Origin: a virus
Taxonomy: Duplodnaviria; Heunggongvirae; Uroviricota; Caudoviricetes
Reading direction: 5' to 3' (one strand)
IMG/VR virus record: IMGVR_UViG_3300025327_000015
Length of the DNA stretch: 64,000 nucleotides
Positions within the stretch are counted from its first letter, which is position 1. Each line of letters starts with the position of its first letter. Of this stretch, positions 18,168-64,000 are shown one piece after another. The notes below the pieces were generated by a model. The model saw only the letters and a list, made by a program, of their open reading frames with translations, had not been told where the DNA came from and searched no databases. The translations under genes and the position numbers were made by a program.

Positions 18168-19280
18168 TTACCTCGGCGCTACGTCACGCCAGGATTGGGT
18201 GGCCGAGTTCCAGCGCTGCCCGATCACATTTACGAAGGTCGCTGGGCCGATGATGGGATCGCTTCCGTTGTAGCCTGCACAGCGAGGGTCGGAACCATCT
18301 ACTCGGCCAGTACGGAAGCCCGTGTCCTCGACGCGGTTGGAGATCATCGAGTTGCCGAAGAAGCCGTGATTGCAGGTCACGTAACGGCCGCCATACACGT
18401 CCACATCGTAATTGTTCGAGTAGAAGATCGCGCCACCCGCGCCAATGCAGGTCGCAGTACCAGCATCCCAGTTGCCCGAAGTGCCGTTGACGATGTCCAG
18501 GCGGGCGATGAGCCAGGTAGGATGGAACTGCCACACATCCTGATGCGCGCCCGAGGCTCCGAGCGGCCCACAGTCGAAATTGCCGGTGATCTGGATGTCA
18601 GTCGGACCCGCAGTACGGAACTTGCCCGCGCCACCTGCCGCTCCGATCGTAAGTCCATCGGCGTTCGAGGCCACGATTACATCGATCGTATCTGAGTCTC
18701 CGTCGCCTTTGCAGCCAGAGAGGAAGTCGAGATGTCCCTGATCTCCGAAGTCTGGATTGCCAGTGAAGGTCCATATGAGCTTGAGCGGAAGCGGGCCGTA
18801 GTTGGAGAGCGGCTGCGAGCAGCGGAACTGCTGATTCTCGAACGTGAGCAGCGTCCTATAGCCACAATCCGTTCCGGCGAGTGACCATTCAGAACGGTTA
18901 GAGACTCGACAGTCGAAACCGCCTGGCGGAGGCGGTGGCGGGTCAGTCTCGTCGTCGTCAAGCGCATCCGTACAACCAAGATCAGCAGGCCAGTCGATGA
19001 GAGTGTCACCGTCGTTATCGATCAGATCGGAACACTGGGGAAGCGGGGGTGGAGGTGGCGGTGGGGGCTGCGTCTCCGTGACGGTAATCGTCTCGGTGAC
19101 GGTGATGGTCTCGTGTGGTAGCTGATCCGTGTCTGTGATCGTGGCCGCGCCCGTGACGTCGCCCACGGTGAAGGGAATGACGTGCTCCTCGGTAGTGATG
19201 GTGTGCGTGGCGAGCGCGGCTCCACCGAGACCAAGAACGAAGATTGCAGCAAATACTGCTACGAAGGCGAGTTTTTTCAT
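18168..19280 (-). CDS. secreted protein with signal peptide, Pro-rich linkers and DxDxDG calcium-binding-like motif
   Basis: MKKLAFVAVFAAIFVLGLGGAALA signal peptide; TETITVTETITVTET repeats; PPPPPPPP; LIDNDGDTLID. Confidence 0.45.
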   Translation of the reverse strand: MKKLAFVAVFAAIFVLGLGGAALATHTITTEEHVIPFTVGDVTGAATITDTDQLPHETITVTETITVTETQPPPPPPPPLPQCSDLIDNDGDTLIDWPADLGCTDALDDDETDPPPPPPGGFDCRVSNRSEWSLAGTDCGYRTLLTFENQQFRCSQPLSNYGPLPLKLIWTFTGNPDFGDQGHLDFLSGCKGDGDSDTIDVIVASNADGLTIGAAGGAGKFRTAGPTDIQITGNFDCGPLGASGAHQDVWQFHPTWLIARLDIVNGTSGNWDAGTATCIGAGGAIFYSNNYDVDVYGGRYVTCNHGFFGNSMISNRVEDTGFRTGRVDGSDPRCAGYNGSDPIIGPATFVNVIGQRWNSATQSWRDVAPR

Positions 19281-26390: not shown

Positions 26391-26601
26391 GCAGAGTCCT
26401 CGGAAGAGGAACCCCCGAACTCACAACATATCCCTCGCGATTTGCATCGCTTTCTGTAGATGTGGTACAGTTACAACTGCTACTGAGCCGAAGGGTCAGT
26501 CGGTTATCTTGGCAATAAGAGCAGCCCGTGACGCTCGGGACACCCGACTCCCACACCATGCTCGTAGCTTCAAATCAACTCTTGCCGGGAGGTACAACAC
26601 G

Positions 26602-28182
26602 ATGTCTGATTATCTGACTCGCTACGGAACACGCGTCACGCCGCAGTCTGAGCGGATGCGTGAAGATCAGGTTCTCAACGAAGCTGGCGGCTTTGTTTGG
26701 GAGATCGACGCCTGGGCGCGGATGCGTCGTTTCCTAATTCTCGGAAGCGAAGGGGGATCGTATTACGCTTCCGAATTCCAGGCAACGAAGGATTCGGCTG
26801 CTGCTGTACGCCAGTGCATCAAGGAAGATGGTCTGCGTGCAGTAAAGGAGATCGTAGAAATCTCGCAGAAGGGCCGGGCTCCAAAGAATGATCCGGCACT
26901 CTTTGCGCTTGCCTGCGCGATTTCACTGGGTGATAAGGAAACGCGCTCGGCAGCTGCTGAGGCGCTACCTCTTGTCGCCCGTATTGGAACACATCTCTAT
27001 CATTTCGCCGCCTACGCGGAGACGATGCGCGGTTGGGGCCGGACGATGCGCTGGGCTGTTCAGAACTGGTATGACCGCAATCCCGAGCAGCTTGCACTTC
27101 AAGCGATCAAGTATCGTCAGCGAGATGGCTGGTCGCACCGTGATCTCTTGCGCCTAGCACATCCTTCTCGAAATGAAGAGACAGCTTCGCTCTTTAACTG
27201 GATCACGAAGGGTGTTCCAGAGGAAGGCAAATCTCTATCTGAAATCGTGGGAGGTTTTGAGCAGGCACAAAGCGCTACCACGCCACAGATAACGGCAAAT
27301 CTTGTCCGCGAGTATGGTCTACCACGCGAAGCACTCCAGACTGAGCATCTGAACTCGAAGGAAGTCTGGGCTGCGCTTCTAGAGATGCAGATGCCGATGA
27401 CGGCCATGCTACGTAATCTGGCCACCATGACACGAGTCGGAATTCTCGACTCGAATGATCATCGCAAGCTGGTTCTGAATGCCTTCGATAACCAGGAGGC
27501 GATCACAAACTCGCGTCTGCATCCGCTCGCCATTCTGATCGGAATGGAGACGTATGCACAGGGACACGGTATGCGTGGTCAGCATACTTGGAGCCCAATC
27601 GCTTCCATCGTGGACGCTCTCGACGGTGCTTTCTATAAGGCGTTCGGGAACGTGCAGCCTACTGGCAAGCGCCTACTCGTAGGTGTGGATGCTTCTGGAT
27701 CGATGCGAAGCGGAGTGATCGCAGGTGCTCCAGGAATGATGCCGGTTAAGGCAGCAATGGCAATGGCGCTCGTTTTCACTGCCACCGAGCAGGATGTCGA
27801 AACGGTGCTCTTCGATACCTCACTCTCGACATTCCCACTCTCTGCTCGACAGCGACTGGACGACGTTGTTCGTCGCCATCCAGGCCATGGACGAGGAACA
27901 GATGTCGCGCTTCCGATGCAATACGCAACAGCGAAGAACCGGCAGGTTGATGGCTTCGTTCTTCTAACGGATATGCAGACTTGGGCTGGTTATCAGCATC
28001 CAGCACAGGCGCTTCAGCAGTATCGCGAGCGTAGCGGTATTCCAGCACGCCTTGCCAGCGTCGCACTGATTGCTAATCGCTGGCAGGTGGCAGATCCACA
28101 AGATCCGCTAGCCTTCGAAGCAATCGGATTCGACACCGCTACACCAGAACTCGTTTCCGGCTTCGTTGCTGGTGAGTTCTAA
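26602..28182 (+). CDS. rsr: Ro60/Rsr ortholog (TROVE domain + vWA domain)
   Basis: Collinear similarity to human Ro60 throughout ([26 protein letters not shown] vs [75 protein letters not shown] MIDAS); GGGAGG RBS 7 nt upstream of ATG. Confidence 0.9.
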   Translation: [526 protein letters not shown]

Positions 28183-49282: not shown

Positions 49283-49574
49283 GCTGCGAGTGTAGCGCGG
49301 GTTCAGGACTTCACTCTTGCGCTTTATTACAATTTCTGGTAGAAATACTTAAATGGATACCGCGATTCTCGAACGTCACTTCAAGGAGATGGGGGCACGA
49401 GTCAAGACTCGCATGTCTGAAATGGCTCTGGCGTCATCGCCACTCGCCCGACGGTGAGCATGCCCACTGCCCGCATTGCGACAAGAAGCGAAACTTCCGT
49501 CGCTACCAGACGAAGCGGCCTCGACAGTTGAGGGATGCGGCTCCTTCCGAGTCGCCCTCTAGGCTGTCACCACC

Positions 49575-51075: not shown

Positions 51076-51756
51076 TGGAAGGCGTCATTATTGAAATCCG
51101 CGCAGCTGAAGGCGGTGACGATGCAAAAGATCTTGTCAAAGAACAGTTTTCTGTTTACATCACCTACTGCAAAAGAAGGCGTCTTTGACTATTCAATACT
51201 TGATGAGCGATCTGGAATGATCGTTGCTGAGATCCTTGGCGACGAGGCAGAAGTAGCATTTAGCAATGAATCCGGTGGTCATCGTTGGCAACGCATTCCA
51301 CCGAATGAGAAACGAGGTCGGCGTCATACCTCAACTGTCACCGTCGCTGTCTTCCCGATTATTCCTCCCCAAGATTGGGAATTTTCTGAAGGTGAGATCG
51401 AATGGGAGGCCATCTTAGGCACGGGTCCAGGAGGTCAGGCCCGCAATAAAACAGCAAATGTCATTCGAGCCACACATCTTCCAACGGGCATCTCAGTACG
51501 GATCTCAGATTCACGCTCACAGTGGCAAAATCGTCAGACTGCGTTTCGTTCTCTCGCAGCTCGTATCTCCGCTTACCATAAAGATGAACATTTGAAACGA
51601 GAAGCAAAAGAACGCCGAGAGCAGATCGGAAGTGGAATGCGAGGAGACAAGATTCGTACTGTCCGTCTACAAGATGGACGAGTTGTAGATCATCGAAGCA
51701 AGAAGAAGATGTCAATCGAACGCTATCTAGCCGGGCATCTCGAAGATCTGCACTAG
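51075..51756 (+). CDS. class I release factor homolog (PrfH/RF2-like, GGQ motif) requiring +1 frameshift at 51183..51189
   Basis: Frame 0 (ATG 51075) encodes MEGVIIEIRAAEGGDDAKDLVKEQFSVYITYCKRRRL then TGA; +1 frame continues DYSILDE...GTGPGGQARNKTANVIRATHLPTGISVRISDSRSQ; slip site CGU CUU UGA C with AGAAGG 3 nt upstream. Confidence 0.7.
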
Positions 51757-53833: not shown

Positions 53834-55747
53834 TTAGAGGACAGACTCTTCTTTTCTTCGCAATCATAAACGAGCGGACCAGACCTGGCTGCTTTTTCTG
53901 CTTCGACTTTTTCCTTTTCTGTTCTTCATCCCAGGGCATCGGCTTGTGCCTTACAAAAGCAATCAACGTTGGAATAGCATAGACAACAGCTATTACTATA
54001 ATAAACAGAATAGCTACCAAACCTACTATTCCTACCATAAATGTCTTGCCAACAAGTATCCAGAAATAAGAACACAGATTAGTTGGCTCTTGAGAATGAC
54101 CCCCAAACTCATGTTGAAGCCACCACCAATAACGATAATGCCAAGAATCATCTCTAACGACGAATTTATCCATTCAGTGCTCCTCGATCAACACGCCATC
54201 CCTTTTCATCCAAGATCATCGGCGCTTGTCTAAAGACGATCGGCATCTCAAAAACAGATTTCGATTCTGGAAAAACATGTAGCTCCCAAAACCCCCAATG
54301 TCCCACATTACAGACTTCATTACATTCAAAGATACACTCATAAACTTCTCCCTCTTCAAACGCAGCGAAGAGATTAGGCGTACCATCACTGAAACGAGGC
54401 GCCATACGCTCTTCGCGTATAAGGTTAATCTGCCGTCGAAGGACCAACGCCTCACAGTCCTCTTTACGACAGACACCAAGATCCTGTTTTTTTAGAAACT
54501 GCATCAAGAAATTTCGGGCGCGTCTTCCGAGGGGATAGTTGACGCGCCCGAACCTGAAATCTCAAGAATGAACTCTTCTGGTAAAAGACGGAACATCACC
54601 CTCTGAAGCACATCTAGTTCTACATCGAGAGCAGCGAGAGCATTCTGTTCTTTCTTCTCCCAGACGGTATAAGAACCCTCATCCGCAGGATATTCATCTG
54701 GCCCTACAAGCGTAATCTCAACTTTTCTGAGAATCATTTCTTACTCTCTACAGTCTTCACTGCTTCTGTAAAACCTTTTTCGATATCTGCCCAGCGACGA
54801 CTAGGGGAATCGTTCCAACTCGTAATTCTTCCTTCAATTGTTCCATAACGATAGTTAGAGGATAAAGAACCAGCAAGCGCCTTAAGAACAGCCCGGCGCA
54901 ACCTTCGTTTTCCAACTGTCAATTCTCGGACAGCTCCAACTGAACAAAAAGACACTTCTTTCTCCCATTCGCCTTCTTTGTTTTTGTGGCGGATGGTTTG
55001 GCGATAGTGACCCCTAACCCAATGTTGGCCTTTTTCGTTCATGAGAGCCAATGCCTGCAAAAGAACGTTCCGGACTTCCTGTGAAGTAGGTTCCGAGTTC
55101 ATGCTTTCTCTTTTCCTTTCTTTAGAAGGCGTCCAAACACTGCTCGATCAAACGATCCTGTCACCTCTTGGTCAATCCCAAACTCCCGCAAATGCGCCGT
55201 TCCCTCTGGCTTACCATCCCATTCCCAGGCGGCGTTGGCCATTGCTCGCTTCACTCTCGATTCTCGAACGGCTCCTGTTTCCCGCCTACGCTCAGCTTCG
55301 TTTTCACCCAGAGCACTCCCATAAGCAATCGCTTGCTCACGAGTCAAATACTTGAACAAGCCAGTTCGGAGTGCTTCCCGCCGGGCGGGAGTTCCTCCCG
55401 CTTCGATTGCTCCTTCTACCAACTCAACTTTCTCATGAAATTCCTTAGAGTGAACGTATTCCTCCGAGGACACGGAGCGGGGACGATGCGGTTCTGTTTT
55501 AGACCCCTCAGCGTCCTGAGAGATATGCCCCACGCCTTCCGGCTGGCTGGTAGTTATACCCGTACCGTCTTTATCCCGCTCCGTCTCCTCGGCATGACGA
55601 AGAAGCTCATCGAATTCGCTCATTTTTTCTCCTTGCGCTTCTCCAATGCATAACGCACTAGATCTCGTACCCAGATTGCTACGTCCTTTCCTTCTTCTTC
55701 CAGACTACGCGCATCTTCAGCCTTCACATATACGATTACTTTTGGCA

Positions 55748-57977: not shown

Positions 57978-58011
57978 AGCGTAACTCTACCACCTTACGG
58001 TACTTACGGCA

Positions 58012-58085
58012 AGCCTCCAGCCGGATTCGAACCGAGCGCTTCGGGTTTGAAGGACCCGTGAGCTAGACCGCTACTCAATGGAGGC
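58012..58085 (-). tRNA. tRNA-Glu-like (anticodon UUC)
   Basis: Acceptor gcctcca/tggaggc, D-stem gagt/gctc, anticodon stem cgggt/acccg loop ccttcaa, T-loop ttcgaat. Confidence 0.45.
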
Positions 58086-58121
58086 GAGTCCGGAGGGTGG
58101 GTATCGCTCGTTCGATGTGTA

Positions 58122-58194
58122 CGCCCTCAATCGGATTCGAACCGATGTGTTCACCTCGACAGGGTGACAGACTAGGCCGCTGTCTGATGAGGGC
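58122..58194 (-). tRNA. tRNA-Asp (anticodon GUC)
   Basis: Acceptor gccctca/tgagggc, D-stem agac/gtct, anticodon stem tcacc/ggtga loop ctgtcga, T-arm atcgg-ttcgaat-ccgat. Confidence 0.6.
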
Positions 58195-58199
58195 AGGTA

Positions 58200-59340
58200 A
58201 GGCGTTTCAAGCATGGAAAACGTTCGAAGAATGGCTTGTGAATAGGCGTTTCATGTCTGGGAAGCGTTCGGCGCGGGCCTGCGAGCGTGCATGTCATGGA
58301 AAGCGTCAAGCTCAATGGCTCAAAGGCTTGTTTTAAGCGCGTTGCAGCTCTGGTTATCACAGCTTCAATGGCGCAGCACGTGGTGTGGTGGTGAAATGTC
58401 TTTGATATGGCGCGTTTCAGTCTTGGGAAACGTCGCCGTTGTGGCGCGTGCTTGACGTGGCTAAACGTGTCCAAGATGGCGCGTTCATAATGGGTATACG
58501 TGGCCGAAGTGGCATAAATAGGTGTTTTCGAGCGTGAACACCTTGATTATCGTCGTTAAGCTGGCTTTAGGACGTTTTCCTAGTGGGAATCGTGGTAATC
58601 CTAGCGCGTGTTCCGTGTGGGGAACGCATGCGGGTTGGCGCGTATTCAAGTTGATGAATGTGTGAGTTCTGGTGCGCTGAGGCTGTGGAAAACGTTCGTA
58701 TAGCGCGTGTGGTCGTATAGATATCAAAATATTTGAACTCGGCGTCCGTGGTATGGAGATCTCGTGGTACGCATGGCCGTATAGGAAATGAAGAATGCTC
58801 GTTTAATTGGTGCTTCGGCTGAGGGATATCGTGGATGCTATGGCGCTTGAGTTCTGGTTGTCGCTCCGGACTTGGCCGTATAAAATGGCGTTTGGAATAT
58901 GGAAATCGCTGGGACTGTGGCTGATGTAAAGATCCGCGCATCGTCTTTGATGAAAGGAGTTTCGCTCATGGCGGGTAACAGACATGCTTCGTATGGGTTC
59001 CGCAAGCTCCGTGATCTGTCGTATAGATACTATCAGAAACTAGAGAAAATGTTGTGTATATAGCGCTGAGCCTTGGAAACCCGTATAGGCGCCTGGGCGT
59101 AGCGGTAGCAGCTGGGTTTCCCGTCCGCCGTCGTCGTCGGCGCCTACCGCCGGACGGTACGGGGTGGATTCTGAAACGTTCGAGAATCGGCGCCGCTTTG
59201 AGAAGGCTTTGAGAACCGACTTGACAGATTGCAGGGACCGGCCCCATACTGGGGGTGCCCCGCAGGACGGCGGCGAGACCGCGTACCGGGGGCGAAAGGC
59301 GAGACGTTTGACAACCTAAGCCGGTAGTCGCCCAGATAGG
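58200..59340. repeat. about 1.1-kb noncoding region with dispersed ATGGCGCGT-like and AACGTTCG motifs
   Basis: At least 8 copies of (A)TGGCGCG(T) (58407, 58442, 58476, 58625, 58701, 58839, 58885...) plus aaacgttcg repeats; only short overlapping ORFs. Confidence 0.45.
59166..59188. promoter_or_regulatory. operator-like inverted repeat GGATTCT-N10-AGAATC (first of 5 copies)
   Basis: Copies at 59166..59188, 60596..60621, 61549..61572, 61852..61873, 62799..62820, each 20-60 nt upstream of an RBS and start codon. Confidence 0.5.
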
Positions 59341-59352
59341 GAGGCACTATCC

Positions 59353-60183
59353 ATGTCTAAGACGACTACCAAGCCGCGAAAGCGGCTATCCGCCGCGGAC
59401 CGTGAAACCCTCACGGCGGCCGAATCGCAGCTCGGATACTTCTCCGAGGAGATTCGGGCCATCGCAGTGTCCATCGGCCGGGAATGGGTCAGAGTTGGCA
59501 TCCTGCTAGCGCAGGGAGCCGCACTACTCGAATCCGTCCCCGCGTTGATGGCCCAGTTCGGATCGCCCGAAGGCTGGGCCCGGACCGTTCTCCCGGAATA
59601 CTCTGGGGGAGAGGGAACCGGCGGTATCTGGGGCTCATCCCCCGCGTACCGTGCGTTGCAAGCCGGTCGCGTTGCGCTGGTTCTAGGTGACGACGTCGGC
59701 GATGCGAGTGTCGCAGCCCTCGTTCCGCTTCACCGGGTTATCTCCGGCGTCAAGCCGGAGGACCAGGAGAAAGCGGAGACGAAGGTCCGCACCCTCTGGA
59801 CCCGTGCAGGAAAGCGGGGGACCCCTACCCTGGCGTCCATTACGAAAGTTCTGGACGGAATGGCAGGGACCCGCGGGAAGCCGAAGGGGTCCGAGAAGAC
59901 TCCGGGGTCCGGGCGGAAAGGAAAGGGGAAAGCATCGGCTAAGCCTGCCACCACGCAGGCCGAGCCGGAGTTGACTCAGAAGGACCTTTCCGCTATCGGA
60001 CAGAAGGTGGCGGGCATCCTGAAGAACTATCCCGACGAATCTCGTCGTGCGGTTCTTCTCGCCATGCACGCTACCGCCGCATTGTGCATAGACTTTGGTG
60101 CGGCGAACGTTTCCGGAGTCATTCTTGCCCGCCTGAAGGAAAGCGGGAACGGGAAGACCCGGAAGGCTAAGGATTCCAAGTGA
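59353..60183 (+). CDS. Lys/Arg-rich hypothetical protein
   Basis: 276 aa; GGGAGG RBS; basic K/G-rich central segment. Confidence 0.4.
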   Translation: MSKTTTKPRKRLSAADRETLTAAESQLGYFSEEIRAIAVSIGREWVRVGILLAQGAALLESVPALMAQFGSPEGWARTVLPEYSGGEGTGGIWGSSPAYRALQAGRVALVLGDDVGDASVAALVPLHRVISGVKPEDQEKAETKVRTLWTRAGKRGTPTLASITKVLDGMAGTRGKPKGSEKTPGSGRKGKGKASAKPATTQAEPELTQKDLSAIGQKVAGILKNYPDESRRAVLLAMHATAALCIDFGAANVSGVILARLKESGNGKTRKAKDSK

Positions 60184-60643
60184 ATCCGCCTAGCCTGCGA
60201 GTCTGGTCAACGATCCTCGCGAATCGCATCGGTACGCTCGATGCAATAGCGGGGCACAAGATCCGCTAGACAATCCACTACTTGACTACCGGCTTAGGTT
60301 GACTGGGGGACCCGAAAGGGTCCCCCTCTTTTTGGTCCCGGACGGGTCCTCCCCCTAATCCCGGACGGACCCGCGGGATAGGAAGGTCCTTCATTCCCGC
60401 GCGGCGGGAATAATCCCTGCCTCCCCGGATCCTTCCCGTGCGGGGGAGGGAACCCCCTGCCTCATCGGTTCGCCACCTTGTGTCCTGCCTTGACAACGTA
60501 CGAGGGAGGCGTGAGACAATGTAAGTGCGGGCTCGGCGCGTTTCGGGCGCTGATAGACCTGACTCCCCACGCTACCGCGTCGGCCCGCATCCTTCGGGAT
60601 TCTGAAACGTTTGAGAATCCCCCGTCCGGGAAGGAGACCCGCG

Positions 60644-60871
60644 ATGGCGAATCGCGAGTTCCACCTGGCAACGGAGCAGGGTCGGCCGCTTGCGGTCGTT
60701 CTGGCCCCTTCCGAACTTGCGGCGAAGGATGCCGCAGAAGGACTCTCCGAAATCATCGGTGGTAAGCCGGTGGTTGTGCGCGAGTACCTTGGGTTCCTAT
60801 GGGGTAAGGATCGGCTTTCCGAGCCGCTCTATTCCACCGCCCAGGGCTGGGTGGCGGCTGCGTTCCTGTAG
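60644..60871 (+). CDS. small early protein
   Basis: ATG 60644 preceded by GGAAGGAG and operator palindrome. Confidence 0.35.
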   Translation: MANREFHLATEQGRPLAVVLAPSELAAKDAAEGLSEIIGGKPVVVREYLGFLWGKDRLSEPLYSTAQGWVAAAFL

Positions 60872-61610
60872 TCGCTGCGGTTCCTGCCGACTTGTGCGGC
60901 AGGTTCCGGAGCTACTGAAAGGAGAACCTCATGCTCCAGGTCCGAATGGACCCGGCGGCTATGGCGCGCCTAGAGCGCGAGCTGCTGAGCCTCGTTGAGG
61001 TCGAGGTCGAGGTTCCTCCTCTAGTATCCCTCGACTCCATGCTCGTTCACATCGCTCGTTACCTGAGCGCTGCGGGGTATGGAGACGAAGTTCATAAGCG
61101 GGACGATATGCGGCGTGCTCATTCAGGAGTTCTGCCGCATACACAGCGGCTTCGGCTTCTTGCCGATTATCGTCTGCTCATGCTTCAAAGAGGATTCCCG
61201 CTAGAGGAGGTTGCTCACTTCGATCGCTGATTGCGGTTTCCGCCGACATAGTGCGGCGGATTCCGGAGCCACACGGCTCTAGATAGGGGGTATTTCTGTG
61301 CCTCGGAATCCTGGACATCGTGAGGGTATCCGGCGTTATCGGCGGTCTGGGCAAACTGCCCTGCTGACGGTGGCGACTCTCGTTACGCAGCCGAGCGTTA
61401 CGCATCGTTGCGTAGTCTGCTTAGACGTGGGCTGTGAGTTCTGCCCTGCTGTCGATATCGGTACTTGCCAGTCCTGCGGCGCGTACTGGGATCGCACACA
61501 GAGGCAGGTCTGTCCGTGCGGCGGGTACATCGGTTAGCTCTGCGGGTCGGATTCTCAAACCTTCGAGAATCCGCGCCCGGAGCGCTAGACACTCCAGAAA
61601 GGAGGAAATC

Positions 61611-61799
61611 ATGCCCGACGAACTTTCTTTGGTTTTGGTCGAGTGCATGGATTACAACGCCCGCTGTACGGAGTGGGCGCTTTCGGCTGCGCTTGAAAGC
61701 GAGCGAATAACAGTCGCGCGGCTCGAAGCTGAGAACGCGGAGCTGCGTAAGCGACTCTTTCGGATTCAAGAACGAGTCGCGTGGCTGCTCAGAGCTTAG
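61611..61799 (+). CDS. small early protein
   Basis: ATG 61611 with AAAGGAGG RBS after operator palindrome. Confidence 0.35.
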   Translation: MPDELSLVLVECMDYNARCTEWALSAALESERITVARLEAENAELRKRLFRIQERVAWLLRA

Positions 61800-61841
61800 C
61801 GCTGCGGGTTCCTACCGCCAATGGTAGGTTCCCGGAGCGCT
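61798..61841 (+). other. conserved post-stop hairpin element CTGCGGG(T)-[variable stem-loop]-(T)CCCGGAGCGCT (one of 8 copies)
   Basis: Copies: 60872..60915, 61231..61270, 61533..61585 (operator as inner hairpin), 61798..61841, 62236..62283, 62609..62652, 63057..63097, 63367..63410; inner stems differ in sequence but all pair. Confidence 0.55.
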
Positions 61842-61898
61842 AGGCGTTCCCGGTTCTCAAACCTTTGAGAACCGTCCTGCGAATAGGAGAATCCTAAA

Positions 61899-62234
61899 GT
61901 GGCTACCAGAACTCCTGGGCCACTTATCGGAGCGCGTATTGCAGCGGACGTGCTCTCGAATGGATACCTCGTCTCTACCATCCTTCGCTCGCCCGAGATG
62001 CGAGATGTGGATGGATTGGTCGGTGCATTGGTCGGTGCATTTTCGTCTCTCTTAGGAGAAGAAGATGAAGAGCGTGCTGATCTTCTGACTCCGGGTGACT
62101 ACGAAACGATGGTCTTTCGATGCTCGGAGGAAGGTGAAGTCGAAAGCTGGACCGAACTCGATTTCCGGCGTTATGTCACAAAGGACGAGGCTCTCGCCGG
62201 ACACGAGGAAATCGTCGGTAAGTGGCTCGACTAA
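61899..62234 (+). CDS. small early protein (GTG start)
   Basis: RBS TAGGAGAA; follows operator palindrome. Confidence 0.3.
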   Translation: MATRTPGPLIGARIAADVLSNGYLVSTILRSPEMRDVDGLVGALVGAFSSLLGEEDEERADLLTPGDYETMVFRCSEEGEVESWTELDFRRYVTKDEALAGHEEIVGKWLD

Positions 62235-62332
62235 GAACGCTGCGACTCCTTCCGCAATAGGCGGTCGGGGTCGGAGCGTTTCAGCTCCTCGGAACTCACT
62301 GTGAGTTCTGTCCTGCGAGTAGGAGGTCTTTC

Positions 62333-62608
62333 ATGGCTTCCCTATCTCGGCGTGTGTTCTCGGATGAAGATTGGCAAGAGATGGCGGAAACGTGTGTTGT
62401 CATCGGAGACGTAGCCACTCTCGCACTCGGAGAATCCACACTCGCCGATGAAGCGCAGCGCTACCTCGCGGCAATCGAGACTTTCCGCGCAGAATGTAGC
62501 GATCTTCGCTGGCTCCCAGAGTGGGAGCTGCCGAAAGTGCCGCATTGTGAGAACTGCGGAGAACCGACCGAATGGCCGCAGCGGTATTGCGACCGTTGCC
62601 AGACATAG
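62333..62608 (+). CDS. small protein with C-terminal Cys4 zinc ribbon
   Basis: HCENCGEPTEWPQRYCDRCQT. Confidence 0.35.
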   Translation: MASLSRRVFSDEDWQEMAETCVVIGDVATLALGESTLADEAQRYLAAIETFRAECSDLRWLPEWELPKVPHCENCGEPTEWPQRYCDRCQT

Positions 62609-62843
62609 CCCTGCGGGTTCCGTCGCTACCGCGCGGCGGTTCCCGGAGCGCTTGACAGAATCCGTAGCGAGTCTGTCATGCTGGTCCAAGAGTCGAGATT
62701 GCGTGAGCTGCGCTTTTTAACCGAAAGCATTAGTAGTGCCTCGGGTGGACAAGCCCGGCGAAGTAGGAGAAGCGCAGCTCACGGAGTCTCTGACTCCCGA
62801 TTCTCAATCATTTGAGAATCGCCTTTCTAGAAAGGAGTCCGTT

Positions 62844-63056
62844 ATGGCCGCTCGCAAGAGCGCATCCAAGAACGGCGCCGTATCCGTCTCGATGGAGATG
62901 GATCGGGACACGAAGAACACGATCCGCTTCGCCGAGGTCGTGAACGGACCGCTCGACGTTCCGCAGATCGGTGTTCTCTACGTCCCGAAGGCAACGCTTG
63001 CGGCGATGGGGTTCGAGGACGGTCACAGCCTCCTCGTCTCGATCGCACTCGCCTAG
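62844..63056 (+). CDS. small early protein
   Basis: ATG 62844, AAAGGAG RBS after operator palindrome. Confidence 0.35.
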   Translation: MAARKSASKNGAVSVSMEMDRDTKNTIRFAEVVNGPLDVPQIGVLYVPKATLAAMGFEDGHSLLVSIALA

Positions 63057-63123
63057 CGGTGCGGGTAGGGCCGGTTCTCCGGCCCCTCCCGGAGCGCTAA
63101 AGCGTTCCAGAAAGGAGGTCAAA

Positions 63124-63366
63124 ATGGCTGAGGCCATTACGATCCTCGATCTTGTTGTGCATCGGCTTGGTCGTCCTGCCATTACAGGACAGGACTTCGA
63201 AGATGCGGGACTTGCGATTCTCGGAGGGTGTGAAGGCTGTGGAGCGTCACTCGCTGCCTATAACGCTTATCCATCTAAGTCGGGGTTCTGGCGCTGTGGT
63301 GACTGTCTCTGCGATTCGGGCTGGGAGTCTGTCGAAGAAGCCGATCACGCAATCTTCGGCATGTAG
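63124..63366 (+). CDS. small Cys-rich protein
   Basis: AAAGGAGG RBS; GGCEGCGASL...WRCGDCLC. Confidence 0.35.
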   Translation: MAEAITILDLVVHRLGRPAITGQDFEDAGLAILGGCEGCGASLAAYNAYPSKSGFWRCGDCLCDSGWESVEEADHAIFGM

Positions 63367-63436
63367 CTCTGCGGGTCATCTACCGCCAGCGGTAGTTGGC
63401 CCGGAGCGCTACCCAGTCGCTCCAGAAGGGAGAATC

Positions 63437-63691
63437 ATGTACCTGCTGATTGCTCTCGGCATCCTTGCGTGCGGGCTCGTTACGCTCGTGCTCATGGGCA
63501 TCGTGCTCTGGCAGGAATCCCATCACAAGGATTCCGAGGAGACGGTTCTTTACTCCGAAGATTACGGAGTCGTCAGAGGCGTCGATCCGTCTTGGATCAA
63601 TCCCAAACATCTAAATGATTTCTTCGAGACGCGAACGGTTCCTCGTAAGCATCCAGCTCGCCGAACTCGGCGTTCTCGGGCACTTCATTAG
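63437..63691 (+). CDS. small membrane protein
   Basis: MYLLIALGILACGLVTLVLMGIVLW TM helix. Confidence 0.35.
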   Translation: MYLLIALGILACGLVTLVLMGIVLWQESHHKDSEETVLYSEDYGVVRGVDPSWINPKHLNDFFETRTVPRKHPARRTRRSRALH

Positions 63692-64000
63692 CTTTGAGGG
63701 TTTCACCGTGAAAATACGGTGATTCCCTGAGAGCTACCCGGCTCTCTGGAAAGGAGGTCCATCCAAATGGACGAACCAGCCTTTTCTGAGATTTCCGTCC
63801 AACGCGGAAATCTGGAAGCGATCTGGGAATACATCGGCGAGGGCTGGTCAGGGGAGTTTGATCCTGACGATCCTGACGATGTGCCGCTTCTTCGGTTCAC
63901 TGTCTATCAGGACGGTGAACAGATGGAGGACATGAGCTACTGCACCCAGATGCCAGTCAGTACGGACGAGGGCATCCTTCGGCGTGCGCTCGAACTCATC

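Follow-up and report, generated by a model that had tools for sequence, protein, structure and literature searches.

The question raised by this locus is what a short palindrome, repeated upstream of the early genes of a phage, is for: whether it is a site on double-stranded DNA or a structure in the mRNA, and which molecule would recognise it. The window (the whole stretch of DNA analysed, 64,000 nt) comes from an uncultured phage of about 109 kb; the contig runs on rightward beyond the window, and 73 kb of it are readable. All five palindromes reported in a first-pass annotation are there, none displaced by more than 1 nt; the spacer described there as 2–4 nt is a fixed 4 nt. The core, TTCTSAA-N4-TYGAGAA, is an 18-bp inverted repeat of constant 7-4-7 geometry, which places two half-sites one helical turn (11 bp) apart. 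Copies 2–5 end 26–42 nt ahead of a start codon, within the 20–60 nt first proposed for all five, whereas copy 1 ends 167 nt before the ATG of a gene for a 276-amino-acid (276-aa) protein, upstream of the predicted promoter of that gene. The half-site strings noticed after 59188 are real, and TTTGAGAA occurs within them at both 59197 and 59208. The other such string, given as 49361, begins at 49363 and is a lone half-site that lacks a partner arm; its 13-mer, CGATTCTCGAACG, matches the bottom strand of copy 1 and is found again at 55258, inside an open reading frame.

Table 1. Coordinates of the palindromes and of neighbouring features in the window.
Feature	Position	Strand	Context
Palindrome copy 1, GGATTCTGAAACGTTCGAGAATCG	59166-59189 (core 59169-59186)	.	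divergent intergenic region
Tandem direct half-sites, GCTTTGAGAAG + GCTTTGAGAAC	59196..59217	+	between copy 1 and the -35 hexamer
Promoter-like TTGACA-18-CATACT of the 276-aa gene	59221..59250	+	10/12 matches, the best of the region
276-aa protein, basic, uncharacterised family, candidate binder	59353..60183	+	own transcription unit
Intrinsic terminator, GGGGGACCCGAAAGGGTCCCCC then TCTTTTT	60305..60336	+	9 pairs (L011 7182-7203 = window 60305-60326)
Promoter-like TTGACA, start of early operon	60490..60520	+	copy 2 begins 110 nt downstream
Palindrome copy 2, GGATTCTGAAACGTTTGAGAATCC	60597-60620	.	leader of first early gene; end 27 nt before ATG 60644
Hairpin A, nine RNA hairpins of ~50 nt, each starting at a stop codon	60869..63736	+	starts at 60869, 61228, 61535, 61797, 62232, 62606, 63054, 63364, 63689
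Palindrome copy 3, GGATTCTCAAACCTTCGAGAATCC	61549-61572	.	apex of conserved stop-codon hairpin 61535-61588
Palindrome copy 4, CGGTTCTCAAACCTTTGAGAACCG	61851-61874	.	between stop-codon hairpin 61797-61843 and RBS of gene 61899
Internal promoter-like TTGACA-N19-CATGCT	62652..62687	+	copy 5 begins 149 nt downstream
Palindrome copy 5, CGATTCTCAATCATTTGAGAATCG	62798-62821	.	end 26 nt before ATG 62844

The distribution of the palindrome is far from random. When the whole 64 kb were searched with the 18-bp core TTCTSAAWCNTTYGAGAA, allowing up to 2 mismatches, five matches were obtained, all in the early region, whereas shuffled sequences led to an expectation of 0.14. A further seven palindromes lie at positions equivalent to 64445-71877 of the window, bringing the total to at least 12; in the extended contig there are 12 between 59 and 72 kb and none between 1 and 59 kb. 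All 12 are non-coding, in a region of which only 23.6% is non-coding (P ~3e-8): about 76% of the early region is coding, yet coding sequence holds no copy. A similar density in coding or shuffled sequence had been named beforehand as the result that would speak against a regulatory role, and neither was found. These counts support a multi-copy network restricted to the early region, in which the sites would be bound by a protein.

The surroundings of the palindromes are clearly RNA-structured. Hairpin A has the form TAGCyCTGCGGGT, a variable stem-loop, then CCCGGAGyGCTA, and the palindromes are confined to its apex or to the stretch directly after it; at this apex, 49 other hairpins carry a total of 48 different complementary sequences. 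The palindromes are embedded in this much larger grammar of RNA hairpins, which the first-pass annotation overlooked. Rfam, searched with E up to 1 over window-equivalent 58.6-73.4 kb, returned only two tRNAs.

The palindrome might itself be such an RNA element, i.e., a stem-loop of the early mRNA. As the target of a binding protein or of a nuclease (a translational operator, as had been suggested, or a nut-like or RNase site), it would govern how the following cistron is translated or processed and how stable it is. With one exception, the palindromes belong to intergenic sequence that is transcribed, and a Shine-Dalgarno sequence usually follows 0-17 nt downstream (directly adjacent in a minority, 9-17 nt away in most, ~40 nt away at the apex). 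The right arm abuts or fuses with the Shine-Dalgarno sequence in three to four cases (GAGAAAGGAAG at 68405; 16543 and 17784 in relative L014; 12932 in relative L016). The palindromes can fold into hairpins of -3 to -14 kcal/mol, and their association with given downstream genes is maintained between genomes (a palindrome stands upstream of both members in 3 of 5 orthologous gene pairs and of neither in 1 of 5).

Several observations argue for DNA instead. Among 67 sites (469 pairs), the mismatches between palindrome arms comprise 4 G·U, 9 A·C and 15 others, whereas those in the stems of hairpin A comprise 26 G·U, 1 A·C and 8 others (Fisher p = 2.3e-5). The arms have no wobble bias, and their mismatch pattern is DNA-like, not RNA-like. 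The arms are near-invariant inside any one genome and vary to a similar extent on the left and on the right; the 4 nt at the centre vary, or are palindromic and would then form no loop. Conserved arms around a free centre fit two half-sites rather than an RNA loop that is read out, and the constraint on the arms concerns their sequence, beyond pairing alone. One palindrome directly follows a tRNA-Tyr gene and another lies 15 nt before a tRNA-His gene, about 40 nt separate the copies in the apex from the start codon, and the tandem half-sites next to copy 1, being direct repeats, cannot pair with each other. There is also a copy upstream of the promoter of the 276-aa gene at a phased distance in five genomes, although an unrecognised promoter further upstream could transcribe that copy too. 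Taken together, an RNA element is unlikely, and the translational operator in particular is disfavoured. The palindrome is best read as a site on double-stranded DNA for a symmetric dimer, and the fuller proposal, that it is an operator for a dimer of a phage-encoded protein, has in our judgement about an even chance of being right.

Eight diverged relatives were retrieved via the 276-aa protein, giving nine genomes with this phage; that a homologue is encoded in 9/9 is partly because the protein was the search handle. All nine genomes contain a 7-4-7 palindrome family in the same layout. The arm differs by genome (TTCTCAA, TTCTCAG, TTCTCCG, ATCTCAG, or ATCTCAA plus AACTCAA), and both arms shift jointly across all copies of a genome while the spacing stays constant. 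The sites are intergenic and co-vary by genome in nine phages. That orthologous genes tend to keep a palindrome upstream, in the proportions given above, also speaks for a conserved system. In relative L019, the centre is GATC in 8/8 copies.

Such uniformity within a genome could arise with no trans-acting partner, if short repeats were spread and homogenised by recombination among very similar intergenic cassettes, a scenario reportedly put forward to explain PeSL cassettes in T4-type phages. The intergenic regions are indeed highly repetitive and modular, and the order and position of homologous early genes differ from phage to phage. Set against this, the 7-4-7 geometry and the TCTC/GAGA core have been kept although the 276-aa homologues are only 22-46% identical, coding sequence is free of palindromes, and the sites keep to a rule with respect to promoters in general and to a constant position at one promoter in particular, as described below. 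We give recombination hardly any weight as the whole explanation.

The placement of the palindromes relative to promoters suggests what a bound protein would do. After each promoter-like hexamer there is a palindrome: of the intergenic TTGACA hexamers in the early operons of five genomes, 14/14 have one 17-175 nt downstream, before the next gene, compared with a base rate of 51/96 intergenic gaps. Most palindromes lie 10-150 nt downstream of promoters, typically with no overlap, where a simple repressor would be poorly placed. The promoter of the 276-aa gene is arranged differently. Here the palindrome starts upstream of the -35 hexamer, by 52 nt in this phage, 50 nt in L016 and in L019, 49 nt in L021 and 72 nt in L014, the last being about two helical turns more than in the other four.

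A mechanism can be proposed from this arrangement. Every promoter of the rightward early operon has a palindrome after it, and roughly one in two of the remaining intergenic gaps holds another. A protein bound to them would shut off the whole early block, blocking or silencing transcription as a roadblock or stoperator does; its effect would presumably be repression, not activation. The gene of the proposed regulator stands apart as a transcription unit, having its own promoter and a terminator (60305..60336) that insulates it from the early operon. As its operator lies upstream, not downstream, of its own promoter, the regulator would escape the block and be autoregulated instead.

Three proteins had been put forward as binders. 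The XRE protein (51793) is common to one relative only, and for the RHH-like ORF (57441) none of the loci contains a detectable relative. The third, the 276-aa protein encoded next to copy 1, is the one favoured here and is most likely the protein that would bind the palindromes. It matches no repressor family in Pfam or PHROG. The top structural neighbours of its model are the DNA-binding domains of SopB (3mky), KorB (8qa8) and P1 ParB.

These neighbours raise the alternative that the sites serve a ParB/SopB-like protein that acts mainly in something other than transcription control, e.g., in partitioning or compacting an extrachromosomal prophage or in marking the DNA that is injected first, any effect on expression being a by-product. 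In phage N15, dispersed SopB sites are said to influence expression in just this incidental way. Multiple dispersed palindromes, the iteron-like repeats on both sides of the 276-aa gene, and the fact that no integrase was seen in the readable 73 kb would all suit such a role. The strict 14/14 rule of promoter followed by site points to transcription, however, and the sites lie within one operon rather than in a centromere-like cluster. Neither a ParA-type ATPase nor the N-terminal CTPase domain of ParB was detected, and there was no Pfam ParBc/ParA match to the 276-aa protein, to the 19 homologues aligned with it or to the genes nearby. A primary function other than transcription is thus improbable.

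Alternatively, the palindromes could be bound by a transcription factor of the host, which would time or condition early expression, the half-site differences reflecting different hosts. The phage-encoded binder is a candidate only, and the half-site variants follow the phylogeny of the 276-aa protein only loosely: P0004 (TTCTCCG) is closest to P0010 (TTCTCAG). A host factor would have to accommodate the two arm classes within the single genome of L014, ATCTCAA beside the regulator gene but AACTCAA within the operon, as well as the conserved, phased linkage of sites to a phage regulator gene. No known host motif was recognised in the palindromes; the actinobacterial LexA box does not match their spacing. 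We regard a host factor as very unlikely.

Returning to the phage-encoded regulator, a wider and more tentative reading, which on balance we doubt, can be built from the same data. A phage protein family of ~270 amino acids, in which a ParB/SopB-like DNA-binding core comes without a CTPase domain, would silence the whole early operon by means of palindromic roadblocks, which would be threaded into the only sequence-free positions of an RNA-level code. In this reading, the code would consist of the hairpins embedded in stop codons and an alternative downstream hairpin beside each ribosome-binding site, and roadblocks on DNA and a relay on RNA would together make up a two-layer timing device. 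If true, the protein family would be previously undescribed, and the device would be peculiar to one clade of large, uncultured siphophages. The dense, covarying RNA grammar exposed between the early genes of this clade makes early-gene timing and mRNA processing testable with synthetic DNA, so that no cultured host is needed.

The closest parallels in logic are the stoperators of Cluster A mycobacteriophages, the sites of the L5 gp71-type immunity repressor. These occur in many copies of a short site at promoters and in short intergenic gaps and, by a proposed block to initiation as well as elongation, allow one protein to silence long operons; they are asymmetric 13-mers, bound by a monomer and active in a single orientation relative to transcription (PMC9283540). 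The palindromes described here are likewise numerous, and they share the location, within transcribed operons, at promoters and in narrow intergenic gaps (12/12 non-coding; 14/14 hexamers). However, they are 18-bp palindromes of 7-4-7 symmetry and, being symmetric and unoriented, lack a defining feature of Cluster A stoperators. The 276-aa candidate has no detectable similarity to the gp71-type repressor family of temperate phages, and it is encoded by a phage for which no integrase was seen in the readable 73 kb and no prophage relative was found among 185,579 species genomes. Thus, the stoperator-like network of the first-pass annotation stands as a multi-copy, early-region network of similar logic, but is not a member of the stoperator family.

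On plasmid RK2, the palindromic OB operators are repeated around the replicon, near or far from promoters, and are bound by KorB, a global repressor of the ParB family with a ParB-type helix-turn-helix that silences at a distance (PMC11790492). The present palindromes resemble the sites of KorB, ParB and SopB, which are palindromes of 13-16(18) bp present in several scattered copies, and KorB and SopB are among the top structural neighbours of the 276-aa model; the difference is that neither an N-terminal ParB/Srx CTPase domain nor a partner protein (ParA/SopA or KorA) was detected here, ParBc and ParA having no Pfam match. Cluster O mycobacteriophages contain more than 30 copies per genome of a 17-bp dyad, TGTTCGGNNNCCGAACA, of 7-N-7 form with an AT-rich variable centre and GC-rich flanks; the repeats are denser in the non-structural arm, about a third are inside genes, and their function, like lysogeny in these phages, is unestablished (PMC4351075). 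By comparison with that 7-3-7 repeat, the 7-4-7 palindrome is unrelated in sequence, absent from genes, present at every promoter and linked to a candidate binder. Relative L016 encodes Ku, as does the phage Corndog.

The known repressor of phiC31, a proven temperate phage of Streptomyces, binds conserved inverted repeats (CIRs), 17-bp palindromes at the promoter of its own gene and in many early intergenic gaps. The layout of CIRs is like the one described here, with no known similarity of sequence or protein. Among phages, the silencing of operons from multiple sites is, to our knowledge, well documented only in Cluster A mycobacteriophages, with RK2 KorB as a different form. Beside these systems, the present locus would offer a symmetric, dimer-type version, with the advantages of a one-site-per-promoter rule, a linked candidate regulator whose protein family is uncharacterised, and nine natural specificity variants (TTCTCAA, TTCTCAG, TTCTCCG, ATCTCAG, AACTCAA) that are directly usable for mapping recognition.

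The palindrome is an inverted repeat with a constant 7-4-7 layout, TTCTCAA-N4-TTGAGAA, often lengthened to 22–26 bp by GA/TC or other complementary flanks. The first-pass annotation had reported five copies in the window, all of which are present, and a search for the 18-bp core TTCTSAAWCNTTYGAGAA with up to two mismatches returns exactly five sites in 64 kb, against 0.14 in dinucleotide-preserving shuffles. The window is part of a 108,733-bp metagenomic contig (JGI 3300025325 Ga0209341_10000041), and with the additional sequence joined for counting there are 12 copies, with none in positions 1–59000. All 12 are non-coding, in a stretch of which just 23.6% is non-coding (P = 3e-8); a similar motif density in coding DNA, which would speak against the initial observation, is not seen (0 of 12 copies coding), and that observation is confirmed and extended. 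The copies had also been described as lying shortly before a start codon, which holds for four of the five (they end 26–42 nt before the start) and fails for copy 1, which is situated upstream of the region's best sigma-70-like promoter. The half-site-like strings noticed after copy 1 are real, being two direct half-sites. The string noticed at 49363 is a lone half-site only, and the same 13-mer, which also makes up the bottom strand of copy 1, recurs at 55258 within an ORF. A weight-matrix scan gave 26 lone half-sites above 11 bits, against about 9 matches in total expected from composition shuffles; the lone half-sites lie mostly in coding sequence, could not be told apart from codon bias and were kept out of the argument.

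To the right of 59353, more than 30 very small genes, none with a known family, make up a rightward operon; to the left of this early operon are leftward genes and the virion genes (terminase, tape measure, collagen-repeat protein). Nearly all early genes have TAG as their stop codon, because this TAG belongs to a hairpin of about 50 nt, hairpin A, and forms its first base pair. The hairpin has the form TAGCyCTGCGG(G)T, a variable stem-loop, and CC(C)GGAGyGCTA. The fold is always ((((.((.(((..((((...))))..))).)).)))), with two conserved mismatches in the basal stem and an upper stem that covaries freely. Hairpin A is also present in four relatives, and its base is near-identical among phages whose proteins are 22–46% identical; possible roles are RNase III-type processing, 3′-end protection or translational coupling. 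Its 3′ arm can pair instead with a short segment just 5′ of the Shine-Dalgarno sequence, giving hairpin B. Full 7/7 partners number 22, where 1.9 are expected, and come as GGAGCGC/GCGTTCC and as the compensatory variants GGAGTGC/GCACTCC and GGAGTAG/TTACTCC. Hairpins A and B are mutually exclusive structures, which suggests a relay that couples the termination of one gene to the initiation of the next. Within this arrangement, palindromes occupy two types of place only, the apex of hairpin A or the stretch from A/B to the ribosome-binding site. tRNA-Tyr directly precedes one copy, and tRNA-His follows another at a distance of 15 nt. Rfam has no family for the palindromes, hairpin A or hairpin B. 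A separate 21-nt inverted repeat (90% complementary, 54-nt loop) sits in the leader between a promoter-like site and palindrome copy 5.

Every palindrome copy, except that 5′ of the promoter of the regulator gene (encoding the 276-aa protein beside copy 1), lies in transcribed sequence, and in a few copies the right arm reaches the Shine-Dalgarno sequence. The palindrome might then be read in the mRNA as a translational operator, as had been proposed alongside DNA binding. At the apices of the 49 other A hairpins, however, there are 48 distinct complementary sequences, whereas the palindrome arms are near-invariant inside a genome and shift jointly between genomes; therefore, pairing alone does not explain the constancy of the arms. 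The conserved part of the palindrome is the Watson-Crick stem, the central 4 nt are freely variable in two relatives (L016 and L021) and are GATC, itself palindromic, in 8/8 copies of a third (L019), and the half-site centres are 11 bp apart. Such a pattern is what a symmetric dimer on B-DNA would leave, rather than a protein that reads an RNA loop. The palindrome arms (67 sites, 469 pairs) have 441 Watson-Crick, 4 G·U, 9 A·C and 15 other pairs, whereas the upper stems of the 49 A hairpins have 357, 26, 1 and 8, respectively (G·U vs A·C, Fisher's exact test, p = 2.3e-5). The mismatches in hairpin A are those of an RNA structure formed by the plus-strand transcript; those in the palindrome are not, which disfavours the translational operator. 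Upstream of the regulator gene, the palindrome starts 52, 50, 50 and 49 nt before the −35 element in four genomes and 72 nt before it in L014, i.e., about two helical turns more; in this phage the gap is filled by the direct-repeat half-sites, for which mutual pairing is impossible. An unrecognised promoter could transcribe this copy. Taken together, the palindrome is probably a protein-binding operator in double-stranded DNA.

Relatives of the phage are remote. Its DNA has no similarity to 50,697 phage records, its TerL is at most 36% identical to that of any cultured phage, and no DNA or close protein relative was found among cultured phages. With the 276-aa protein as query, tblastn gave no match and a word-indexed protein search returned the query alone, plus one extra member with a profile; a complete HMMER scan, over 1.84 billion representatives, gave 29 remote homologues with 22–46% identity. 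An exact motif scan of viral contigs gave zero matches. The hairpin A pattern matched four times singly in genome contigs, unfolded and without palindromes, i.e., by chance, and a 4-kb viral contig has a single copy that looks genuine. No relatives were found among 185,579 species genomes, searched with the subset of closer homologues and the hairpin A pattern.

Contigs were taken for eight of the 29 homologues, and the layout is readable in five long loci: the phage itself, L014, L016, L019 and L021. The order is the same in all five: divergent intergenic region, palindrome, promoter, homologue and intrinsic terminator, then GC-rich spacer, promoter, palindrome and a long run of tiny genes split by hairpin A. 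The 7-4-7 palindrome family is present in 9/9 genomes. Its arms are TTCTCAA-N4-TTGAGAA in this phage (12 copies seen), TTCTCAG-N4-CTGAGAA in L016, L020 and L022 (14, 3 and 1), TTCTCCG-N4-CGGAGAA in L017 and L019 (2 and 8) and ATCTCAG-N4-CTGAGAT in L018 and L021 (1 and 12). L014 has two arm classes in one genome, ATCTCAA beside the regulator gene (3 copies seen) and AACTCAA in the operon (9). The phylogeny of the 276-aa protein is only loosely congruent with the half-site variant, and with nine genomes this is unusable as a test of co-evolution. Orthologous early genes tend to retain an upstream palindrome, though its position within the gap moves: among five orthologous pairs, both members have a palindrome in three, neither in one, and one is discordant. 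In one L014 copy the GAGAA right arm is fused to the Shine-Dalgarno sequence exactly as in one copy of this phage, and the genes that follow are orthologous (56% identity). The hairpin A loops of L014 have a common AAATT motif, which matches the palindrome centre.

The family of the 276-aa protein is the only one common to all loci, the loci themselves having been found through this protein. The XRE protein, another proposed binder, is shared only with L014. Pfam and PHROGs searches, run with the 276-aa protein, with neighbouring proteins and with 20 members of the family, gave nothing but an XRE helix-turn-helix; a PDB sequence profile with the 276-aa protein gave no match, and Foldseek with its model found nothing significant in PDB or BFVD. 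The AF2 model (pLDDT 42 from the single sequence, 85 with a 20-sequence alignment) has an all-helical N-terminal domain, which in the family carries the conserved block PTxYRxxNAGxVAxVLG..VGxAS..ALVPLYR, a disordered basic linker and a small helical C-terminal domain. The ORF is flanked by a perfect 18-nt inverted repeat, which joins the 5′UTR with the 3′UTR just ahead of the terminator. An arrangement of this kind, in other sequences, occurs in L021 (17 nt), L016 (16 nt), L014 (15 nt) and L019 (40 nt at 73%), and such conserved long-range pairing would loop the regulator mRNA shut. In the divergent intergenic region, one block is conserved at the DNA level in 5/5 long loci; it has no TANNNT −10 pattern on either strand, and its candidate roles are promoter, site for packaging or replication, or small RNA. 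GC-rich spacers on both sides of the gene hold short tandem or dispersed repeats that are genome-specific and iteron-like, and may mark an origin or form another set of binding sites.

Promoters were surveyed in the five long loci as every exact plus-strand TTGACA that lies in an intergenic gap. All 14 in the early operons have a palindrome 17–175 nt downstream, ahead of the next gene, the base rate being palindromes in 51 of 96 intergenic gaps. The remaining five belong to the gap ahead of the regulator gene, in which the palindrome comes before the hexamer; two of them are part of the 5′UTR/3′UTR stem and are not promoters. Several putative −10 elements match TANNNT or nAnnnT (CATACT, TATGGT, TATCCT, TAGGCT, TAGGGT, TATCAT). 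On the simplest reading, bound protein would block or silence transcription from each early promoter, and extra palindrome copies would catch read-through. The regulator unit has its own terminator and no operator downstream, and so would stay on, autoregulated. That the 276-aa protein binds the palindromes and silences the early operon has, as a full model, about an even chance of being right. The repressor network first proposed is partly supported: the DNA site stands, and of the binders put forward the 276-aa protein is the leading candidate.

No integrase was found in the 73 kb of contig read. The TTGACA/TANNNT-type promoter-like sites, the GAAAGGAGG ribosome-binding sites, the 59–66% GC of relatives and Ku in two of them lead to a guess of high-GC Gram-positive hosts. 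GC rises from about 47–50% at 52–58 kb to 57–60% in the early operon (58000–64000 vs the rest of the window), and the two genome arms differ in composition. The phage also encodes a Ro60/TROVE protein with a vWA domain (Pfam E 2e-45 and 2.5e-44), a release-factor-like gene (PCRF and RF-1 domains) called as two adjoining pieces, and at least 11 tRNA genes, seven of them in the window, with Tyr and His inside the early operon.

Features of the phage and its relatives (window or window-equivalent positions unless a locus is named)
Feature	Location	Sequence or form
Palindrome, 12 copies	59169–71877	
Palindromes at hairpin A apex	61552, 64445, 65665	
Promoter-like site downstream of copy 1	59221	TTGACA-18-CATACT
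Direct half-sites after copy 1	59196–59217	
Isolated half-sites	49363–49375, 55258–55270, 18832–18843	GATTCTCGAAC
Hairpin A	60869–63736, on to ~72385	
Hairpin B	61577–61600, 63089–63118, 63401–63430 and equivalents	
276-aa protein	59353–60183 (+)	
XRE protein	51793	
Conserved intergenic block	~59048–59125	AAAATGTTGTGTATATAGCGCTGAG...GCGGTAGCAG; in L021 TTTGGTGTGTGTACAGCGAGG...CGGTAGCAG
Inverted repeat flanking regulator ORF	59312–59329 and 60284–60301	
Regulator terminator	60305–60336	
GC-rich spacer, this phage	60337–60489	CCCGGACGG
GC-rich spacer, L021	L021 2230–2300	GGCTAGGTC ~7×
GC-rich spacer, L014	L014 9560–9680	GAAGGATTC and GGAAGGAATGC
GC-rich spacer, L019	L019 5770–5960	AGTCAGGGCAGG
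Promoter-like site before copy 5	62652	
21-nt inverted repeat	62695–62790	
L014 arm class beside regulator gene	L014 9681, 10940, 11200	ATCTCAA
L014 arm class in operon	L014 11847–19927	AACTCAA
Right arm fused to Shine-Dalgarno sequence	L014 17784; 68405	GAGAA
Ro60/TROVE protein	26509–28182	
Release-factor-like gene	51091–51756 (L001 1723–2404 on the source contig)	
tRNA-Glu, tRNA-Asp	58012–58195	

Several known elements were compared with the palindrome and rejected. The Gram-positive/actinobacterial LexA box is GAAC-N4-GTTC, and its spacing does not fit. CIRCE has the arms TTAGCACTC-N9-GAGTGCTAA, which resemble the base of hairpin A and not the palindrome, and its spacing is wrong. Hairpin promoters of the N4 type do not apply, as a giant virion RNA polymerase is not in evidence and the stems, of 7–9 bp, have conserved sequence; nor are the palindromes terminators, as they have no T-run. 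Among known systems with some likeness to the palindrome set, the conserved inverted repeats of phiC31 may be one parallel. The stoperators of Cluster A phages share the logic of the palindrome set, but a stoperator is a 13-mer that lacks symmetry, has a set orientation and is bound by a monomer (PMC9283540), and this defining asymmetry and orientation is absent from the palindromes. KorB on RK2 (PMC11790492) is like the palindrome system in symmetry and dispersal, and possibly in fold, although its clamp domain and partner are missing in the 276-aa system. The closest purely genomic parallel is provided by the Cluster O repeats, 17-bp dyads of unknown function of which one third lie inside genes (PMC4351075).
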